Virus record (IMG/VR): IMGVR_UViG_3300008886_000001
Coordinates: 4,181-68,180 of that record
Source: a virus
DNA length: 64,000 nucleotides
Strand: one strand, 5' to 3'
Shown here in pieces: positions 57,578 to 57,683 of the stretch; the stretch's first letter is position 1, and each line of letters begins with the position of its first letter. The notes beneath the pieces were generated by a model. It made no database searches. It was not told the DNA's origin and saw only the letters and a program-made list of their open reading frames with translations. Made by a program: the position numbers and the translations under genes.

Positions 57578-57683
57578 CAGGGATGGCAGGATTCGAACCT
57601 GCATGCGCGTCGGATGTCCGGACACATTCGCTCGCGCACCGGGATTTGCGGTCCCGGTCGGGCCAGCCTCGCCCATCACCCCT
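57578..57683 (-). tRNA. Atypical tRNA-like gene, anticodon GCA, 106 nt, oversized variable arm
   Basis: AGGGGTG/CATCCCT acceptor, GGGC/GCCC D arm, ACCGGGA-CCGCAAA-TCCCGGT, GCAGG-TTCGAAT-CCTGC T arm, G73. Confidence 0.7.

Follow-up and report, generated by a model that had tools for sequence, protein, structure and literature searches.

The species 1 and 2 RNAs of phage T4 are of the same kind as the tRNA-like stable RNAs of phage T5, and these products are among the closest described systems for the element examined here. In T5 they are RNA1 (144 nt) and RNA2 (125 nt), which are annotated in GenBank (AY543070) as “tRNA-like stable RNA with unknown functions” and which fold as expanded cloverleaves with canonical T arms (GCAGG/UUCGAAU/CCUGU in RNA2). 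What defines the allo-tRNAs, a second comparable group, is an acceptor/T geometry of 8/4 or 9/3 together with a Sec-like D arm that has a long stem and a tetraloop; they have a long extra arm, G73, a predicted serine identity and the anticodon of another amino acid (Mukai et al. 2017, PMC5389517). Their anticodon stem is longer, they are linked to phages or mobile elements, and it is doubtful that every one of them decodes (PMC5389517). The selC* tRNA-Cys of Sec-using anaerobes combines U73 and a cysteine identity with a GCA or UCA anticodon, a long extra arm, a lengthened acceptor stem and a D arm of the Sec type (PMC5389517). In plant mitochondria, experiments have shown that the ends of mRNAs are set by t-elements, cloverleaves of non-canonical form within or next to the transcripts' boundaries, at which RNase P and RNase Z cut (PMC1920247).

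Here, we analyze a 106-nt tRNA-like element in a window of 64,000 nt (the whole stretch of DNA under study) that is part of a 72-kb IMG/VR virus record. A first-pass annotation of the sequence had proposed a tRNA-like gene with the anticodon GCA at this place, and both sequence and fold bear this out, as they do its 7-bp anticodon stem, its loop CCGCAAA with C33, and its G73. The coordinates of the element, of its neighbors and of the comparable genes found elsewhere are collected in Table 1. RNA position i is window coordinate 57683-(i-1).

Table 1. Coordinates of the element, of the surrounding prophage features and of comparable genes in other loci (locus handles beginning with L).
Feature	Position	Strand	Basis or remark
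tRNA-like element, 106 nt	57578..57683	(-)	sequence and MFE cloverleaf fold
Anticodon arm of the element	57638..57658	(-)	sequence and fold
Extra (variable) arm of the element, 35 nt	57603..57637 (RNA 47-81)	(-)	fold
12-bp acceptor/T-arm minihelix, intact	57579..57602	(-)	fold
Downstream gene ORF128 (P0051), 127 aa	57153..57536	(-)	gene callers, homologue alignment
Upstream gene P0001, 134 aa	57704..58108	(-)	weak excisionase/HTH-like match, phrog_66, E = 0.003
Pth2-like gene	58649-59029	(-)	in neighboring cassette 58649..59285
tRNA look-alike with 9-nt loop	59132-59208	(-)	ARAGORN
CUA suppressor tRNA	59210-59285	(-)	ARAGORN; normal 5-bp anticodon stem, 7-nt loop
Integrase	59347-60672	(-)	adjoins host tRNA-Pro(CGG)
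Host tRNA-Pro(CGG) attachment site	60758-60832	(-)	marks prophage end about 3 kb from the element
L070 look-alike, number 2	L070:7777-7863		GAAA tetraloop in place of anticodon loop, hairpin inserted in D loop
L070 look-alike, number 3	L070:7866-7941		7-bp anticodon stem, 6-nt loop
Look-alikes with D-loop insertions, 90-92 nt	L034:1387-1478; L035:97-186		beside Pth2
242-nt tRNA-like RNA	L153:4605-4846	(+)	beside ORF128 homologue; identical copy L154:2577-2818
225-nt tRNA-like RNA	L163:1909-2133	(+)	beside ORF128 homologue; identical copy L164:592-816
tRNA-Cys(GCA), long arm, 84 nt, U73	L060:1723-1806 (also L061)		class II body
tRNA-Asn	L058:11126-11215		class II body
Class II-bodied phage tRNAs, including tRNA-Met	L048:3897-3986; L050:10602-10695		Met in both
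selC*-like long-arm tRNA-Cys genes	L009:4506-4598; L012 (match 7163-7218); L021:6047-6142		Firmicutes-type genomes

The element is a 7/5 cloverleaf in which CCA is not encoded (UUG follows the discriminator G at 57578). Its acceptor stem (RNA 1-7/99-105) has 7 bp, including one G-U, with A1:U72 at its end, and A8 U9 link it to a D stem of 4 bp (RNA 10-13/21-24) that closes the 7-nt loop GAGGCUG and is followed by an unpaired G25. The anticodon stem ACCGGGA/UCCCGGU (RNA 26-32/40-46) consists of seven Watson-Crick pairs; read as a 7-nt loop, its loop (RNA 33-39) places C33 at window position 57650 and the anticodon at 57647-57649, and apart from C33 it is of the tRNA-Cys type YUGCAAA. The variable arm had been described as branched and of about 35 nt: the length stands, but the fold is one interrupted hairpin (5 bp, internal loop, 2 bp, bulge, 4 bp, 6-nt loop) and not a branched structure. 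This arm, longer than any seen in 365 phage tRNA calls, holds the 10-bp DNA palindrome TGTCCGGACA. Tested as a repeated operator or late-promoter motif, this palindrome shows no enrichment, with a single occurrence in the window, from which a second copy of the arm itself is likewise absent. The T stem (RNA 82-86/94-98) has 5 bp and the loop UUCGAAU. The acceptor and T stems make up an intact minihelix of the kind recognized by tRNA-processing enzymes. The minimum free energy and centroid folds are exactly this cloverleaf (-51 kcal/mol, z = -2.43), and no mismatch occurs among the 28 pairs that form its canonical acceptor, D, anticodon and T stems. G18-G19 and the whole canonical T loop are kept, and at the places of U8, A14, A21 and U33 stand A, G, G and C.

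A structural census of the window for sites that combine a T arm, a D hairpin and an acceptor stem of 7 bp yields four and no more, namely the three tRNAs called by ARAGORN and the element, against a chance rate of 0.02 per window in 150 dinucleotide-preserving shuffles. The element is therefore genuine and tRNA-derived. It lies outside coding sequence, as judged from gene callers and homologue alignments. An attachment-site remnant or a repeat can be rejected because neither the element nor the end of the tRNA-Pro has a second copy in the window. Standard annotation tools miss it. ARAGORN, which the first-pass annotation had named as a check, makes no call at default settings or at -ps90, and at lower thresholds or with the intron option it returns implausible readings only; one of these, a tRNA-His with a 27-nt intron, is rejected for its mismatched stem and the non-canonical position of the intron. 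The Rfam tRNA model RF00005 gives the element 23.1 bits (gathering cut-off 29; E = 6.9e-4 in the 72-kb record), and the tRNA-Sec model RF01852 gives it 33.4 bits (cut-off 47; E = 2.5e-6 in the same record). It falls below these cut-offs, and goes uncalled, because its core and decoding parts deviate. When RF01852 was calibrated, ordinary planctomycete class II tRNAs scored 35-47 bits and true tRNA-Sec 73-77 bits; the match of the element therefore signifies simply a tRNA with a long arm, and the model could mislabel it. The planctomycete genome G292 has two full-scoring tRNA-Sec genes of 73 bits each (C63:9143-9234 and C87:7977-8070).

The element fails the defining features of canonical tRNA, tRNA-Sec, allo-tRNA and selC* tRNA-Cys alike. 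It has the 7/5 geometry and the 7-nt loop of a canonical bacterial tRNA, but its anticodon stem is of 7 bp rather than 5, positions 8, 14, 21 and 33 deviate, and it is neither called by ARAGORN nor scored above 29 bits. A tRNA-Sec is recognized by 47 bits, an 8/5 (13-bp) acceptor branch, a 6-bp D stem with a 4-nt loop and the anticodon UCA; here the score is too low, the anticodon is GCA, and the extra acceptor pairs of RF01852 are mismatches. The first-pass annotation had argued that the 7/5 fold sets the element apart from both the allo-tRNAs and selC*, and rightly so; lengthening its acceptor stem to eight pairs would bring in A:C or G:G. It also differs from the allo-tRNAs (PMC5389517) in its 4-bp D stem with a 7-nt loop. 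Its predicted identity is of their type, with a 35-nt arm, a discriminator G73 (where G73 or U73 is expected) and a non-serine anticodon, and it resembles them in its longer anticodon stem, its phage linkage and its doubtful decoding. From selC*, with which it has the GCA anticodon and the long extra arm in common, it is separated by G73 in place of U73 and by a D stem of ordinary length.

Genes that resemble selC* came to light in a search of 185,579 species genomes (one per species) with an anticodon-arm/T-loop pattern, which gave 28 matches: three selC*-like tRNA-Cys genes, the rest being chance matches or ordinary tRNAs. All three have the same loop as the element, C33 included, although the search pattern forced that loop, so that no frequency of C33 among selC* follows from them. 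They have Sec-like D arms, and U73 with acceptor stems read as 7 or 8 bp; for the genes of L009 and L012, an 8-bp stem followed by a discriminator C is a second reading. The L009 gene sits in a seven-gene tRNA operon.

Phage tRNAs with a class II body and a class I anticodon, which make up about 5% of the 365 tRNA calls in Pth2-bearing phage loci, share with the element an extra arm and an anticodon other than those for serine, leucine or tyrosine. These genes, however, are 84-98 nt long and called by ARAGORN, with 5-bp anticodon stems, U33 and a discriminator that matches the anticodon, whereas the element has 106 nt, four broken conserved positions and a discriminator mismatched to its anticodon. 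A further such tRNA lies at L042:10055-10143; the set covers Cys, Asn, Met or Trp anticodons and has Ser-like D arms and matching discriminators. In the T5 record, the Thr and Asn tRNAs are of normal length (75 and 78 nt). The locus L054 (3918-4038; the same as L123) has a 121-nt tRNA-like gene that encodes CCA and is normal in its acceptor stem and in its D and T arms, and in which an insertion of about 50 nt occupies the place of the anticodon arm.

In build, the element corresponds to the T5 RNAs. Both are phage-encoded and exceed 100 nt, and the cloverleaf-like fold of each comprises acceptor stem, D hairpin, enlarged middle part, extra hairpin and canonical T arm; for the element, this T5-type structure is that of its computed fold. 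There is no sequence homology between them. The T5 RNAs are encoded within the extensive tRNA cluster of a virulent phage; the element is solitary, with protein genes on either side, and its phage is temperate. Unlike them, it keeps a regular 7-nt anticodon-type loop. The t-elements (PMC1920247) share with it the position of a non-canonical cloverleaf between or beside mRNAs and the mechanism that we propose below; they belong to another domain of life, have no sequence relation to it, and are processed in fact, where the element would be so by analogy.

With its 106 nt, the element takes up most of the 167 nt that separate two co-oriented genes. Upstream, 20 nt lie between it and the stop codon of the excisionase-like gene; this gene, P0001, is also called in L151 and L152 and matches nothing but itself among 5.8 billion proteins. 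Downstream, the ATG of ORF128 follows after 41 nt. ORF128 has homologues in eight lineages (56-79% identity), and the DNA homology with these begins at its start codon, with none upstream. Its AlphaFold model is a helical hairpin (pLDDT 75.5) without a match at E <= 0.001 in PDB or BFVD, and the protein has no PHROG or Pfam match. From the right end of the prophage, the order is host tRNA-Pro(CGG), integrase, CUA tRNA, look-alike, Pth2-like gene, a short (+) gene, the excisionase-like gene, the element and ORF128. The element is located in an early, counter-defence-rich arm next to the cassette of Pth2 and the suppressor tRNA. The host is described as planctomycete-like, and a flanking protein finds at best 35% identity among 401 planctomycete genomes, which does not confirm the host family. 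A terminator-like hairpin of 15 bp with a U tract (59059-59096, minus strand) separates the tRNA pair from the Pth2-like gene. Elsewhere in the window, three covarying hairpins stand between early genes on the plus strand (29605-29660, 29996-30052 and 35263-35335); they consist of 6 bp, a 10-nt bulge, 6 bp and the loop UGCAAGC, and their helices hold on folding, with unexceptional energies (z = -0.5 to -1.3).

It had been suggested in the first-pass annotation that all three prophage tRNAs have abnormal anticodon arms and that this is a sign of selection. The CUA tRNA contradicts the first part, having the normal arm given in Table 1, and only the neighboring look-alike and the element deviate among the phage tRNAs. 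With one of the three normal and no covariation for the element, the argument for selection was overstated.

The explanation that we favor, tentatively and with rather less than even confidence, is that the element is a non-decoding phage tRNA-like RNA of the T5 kind, whose excision from an early transcript, by RNase P and RNase Z, would punctuate the mRNA. It would be transcribed within the early operon, as is suggested by its co-orientation between two early genes and by the lack of a detectable promoter of its own: no promoter-like site was found just upstream of it, its strand has a single match, which is situated downstream of it, and another candidate comes next near 58233, in a divergent region. 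This region (58108-58241), between the (-) excisionase-like gene and a (+) lysine-rich ORF of 111 aa (58241-58576), has a sigma-70-like site at 58233-58261 and is possibly a switch region from which the operon of the element is transcribed. In the RNA, the canonical T loop and the D-loop GG would form a tRNA elbow, and with the 12-bp minihelix they should provide a substrate for host RNase P, cutting at the 5' end (57683), and for RNase Z, cutting at the 3' end after G 57578. The early transcript would in this way be severed between the excisionase-like gene and ORF128, as by the plant-mitochondrial t-elements, and a presumably stable RNA of about 106 nt would be released, to which CCA could be added and which, judged by its identity set, might accept serine.

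The distribution of change within the molecule agrees with such a fate, in that the parts needed for processing are canonical (7/5, UUCGAAU, D-loop GG) and those of the core and of decoding deviate. Related phages point the same way. Next to the suppressor tRNA, the most closely related Pth2 cassettes have look-alikes whose acceptor and T arms are intact and whose interiors plainly cannot decode (Table 1), and the 18-nt T arm of the third gene of L070 is identical to that of the element. Moreover, two other ORF128 lineages have large tRNA-like RNAs of 242 and 225 nt beside the gene. Their acceptor stem (7 bp, GGUUYCG/CGRAACC) shows a compensatory change, and their T stem, which closes the loop UUCGAUU, covaries; there are also a D-like hairpin and an inner domain of 150-170 nt, and the discriminator is A. 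These RNAs match nothing in Rfam and are not called by ARAGORN, and may represent an undescribed phage RNA family. A pattern scan of IMG/VR for further members of 225-242 nt gave nothing. RNA1 and RNA2 of T5 provide the phage precedent, and the t-elements (PMC1920247) the precedent for processing.

Several observations speak against a processed, non-decoding RNA. The minihelix alone would suffice for excision, yet the D, anticodon and extra-arm helices are flawless too. The tRNA-Cys-like loop with its purine 37 has been kept, which would equally fit a tRNA that was recently acquired or is still charged, and C33 occurs in the apparently functional long-arm tRNA-Cys of the L009 tRNA operon. In five of the eight ORF128 lineages there is no RNA beside the gene. 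Finally, the element has no homologue, and hence there is no covariation that could prove selection on it.

An alternative that we consider unlikely, although it survives better than the others, is that the element is a functionless relic, a tRNA gene recently captured or rearranged and not yet degraded. The element is a singleton without relatives in any collection searched. Scans of IMG/VR with exact and degenerate anticodon-arm/T-loop patterns gave no match to it, nor did blastn against 50,697 phage records. A covariance model built from this single sequence (R1; self score 144 bits) reached at best 29 bits on other sequences, and this on ordinary tRNAs, over about 120 loci, five viral records (among them the closest provirus) and 11 planctomycete genomes. 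No copy is found in the 108 loci with Pth2 homologues, in the eight lineages of ORF128 homologues or in the closest provirus (Pth2 62% and methylase 67% identical), and the sole other copies, 100% identical, are those of L151 and L152, which are the same prophage in two sequencing runs; assemblies of the runs ERR3150493 and SRR11870589 contain it. The conservation in related prophages by which the first-pass annotation had proposed to judge its reading is thus missing from IMG/VR, from the 185,579 genomes, from the Pth2 and ORF128 loci and from the closest provirus. A relic would also account for the orphan gene at its flank, for a poorly conserved region in which homology stops at the start codon of ORF128, and for scores under the cut-offs of both tRNA models. 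Decay, however, should bring mismatches into stems, and the canonical stems have none; the changes are concentrated at conserved single-stranded positions, with pairing kept, and relatives retain look-alikes of the same style.

A more doubtful alternative is that the element is an active missense tRNA, which would be charged by SerRS through its long arm and G73, delivered by EF-Tu through its standard 12-bp acceptor branch, and would read UGC and UGU so as to place serine at some cysteine codons during infection. Compared with the identity determinants that PMC9976931 lists for bacteria (Table 1 of that paper), the element has five of the seven serine determinants (G73, G2:C71, R4:Y69, the large variable region and G30:C40), missing C72, which is U72, and C11:G24, which is G11:C24. 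It has two of the five for cysteine (G2:C71 and G34-C35-A36), with G73 for U73, G3:C70 for C3:G70, and A15 where G15:G48 is required; the missing U73 is the major determinant of bacterial CysRS (PMC9976931), and the element falls short of the bacterial tRNA-Cys set. As a prediction, the serine-type identity that had been read from the long arm and G73 despite GCA holds up, and the set fits SerRS better than CysRS, which predicts serylation rather than cysteinylation if the RNA is charged at all. In addition, the 7-nt loop has GCA, A37 and C32/A38, all helices are perfect, allo-tRNAs with serine identity and non-serine anticodons exist and are in part active in Escherichia coli (PMC5389517), and class II bodies with class I anticodons occur at the frequency given above in related phage loci.

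Decoding is where this proposal weakens. The first-pass annotation had considered a missense tRNA, a decoy or an mRNA processing signal. Its argument from a predicted serine identity stands, but efficient decoding is less likely than it implied, given an anticodon stem of 7 bp and the lack of U8, A14, A21 and U33. We know of no working tRNA with an anticodon stem of this length. The non-canonical tRNAs treated in PMC7609411 (tRNA-Sec, tRNA-Pyl and mitochondrial tRNA-Ser(UCN)) have at most 6 bp there. C33 by itself does not exclude decoding, since the apparently functional tRNA-Cys of L009 has it. A missense tRNA is further disfavored by an extra arm that exceeds the class II arms of these loci, by the absence of a Ser-type D arm (C11:G24 with a large D loop) and of any homologue, and by the many tested allo-tRNAs that are inactive in translation (PMC5389517).

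It is more improbable again that the excised RNA serves as a decoy or sponge, acting in trans by binding a host defence nuclease that targets tRNA, or another tRNA-binding protein, so that the host tRNA-Cys or the phage suppressor tRNA would be protected. Phage tRNAs with altered anticodon loops do evade host anticodon nucleases (PMC10264068, PMC11555353), but the tRNAs in those cases function and can be charged, unlike an inert decoy. A tRNA-Cys-like loop combined with C33, a long stem and a large arm could block cleavage, and the early, counter-defence-rich location beside the Pth2/suppressor cassette would suit such a role; against it, no cognate nuclease is known for the host, and here too the lack of a homologue counts. 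A spare, cysteine-accepting tRNA-Cys with an extra arm, kept for cysteine decoding or nuclease resistance, is very improbable, for although the long-arm phage tRNA-Cys(GCA) of L060, the CCGCAAA-loop genes of three genomes and some Cys-rich phage proteins (up to 7.6%) lend it a precedent, those genes all have U73 where the element has G73, C3:G70 and G15:G48 are absent, and the overall Cys content of the phage proteins is an ordinary 1.5%.

The most far-reaching consequence attaches to an outcome that we regard as improbable, that of a working 7/5 serine tRNA which reads cysteine codons and is a deliberate device for Ser-for-Cys mistranslation in early infection. If true, this could, for example, cripple cysteine-dependent host enzymes or defence proteins, and would be achieved by a molecule whose architecture (7-bp anticodon stem, 35-nt arm, C33) no described tRNA class has. 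An element that was charged and decoding would be the first 7/5 tRNA with serine identity and a cysteine anticodon, and a new case of programmed mistranslation by a virus. By comparison with the known systems, it is probably best regarded as a structural variant that is built like the phage tRNA-like stable RNAs and resembles the allo-tRNAs in the mismatch between identity and anticodon. It shows how much enlargement the cloverleaf tolerates, here an extra arm of 35 nt and an anticodon stem of 7 bp, with the minihelix still kept. If the RNA is made and excised, as we tentatively propose, a temperate phage of planctomycete type would join T4, T5 and the t-elements among the few systems with tRNA-shaped RNAs that do not decode.
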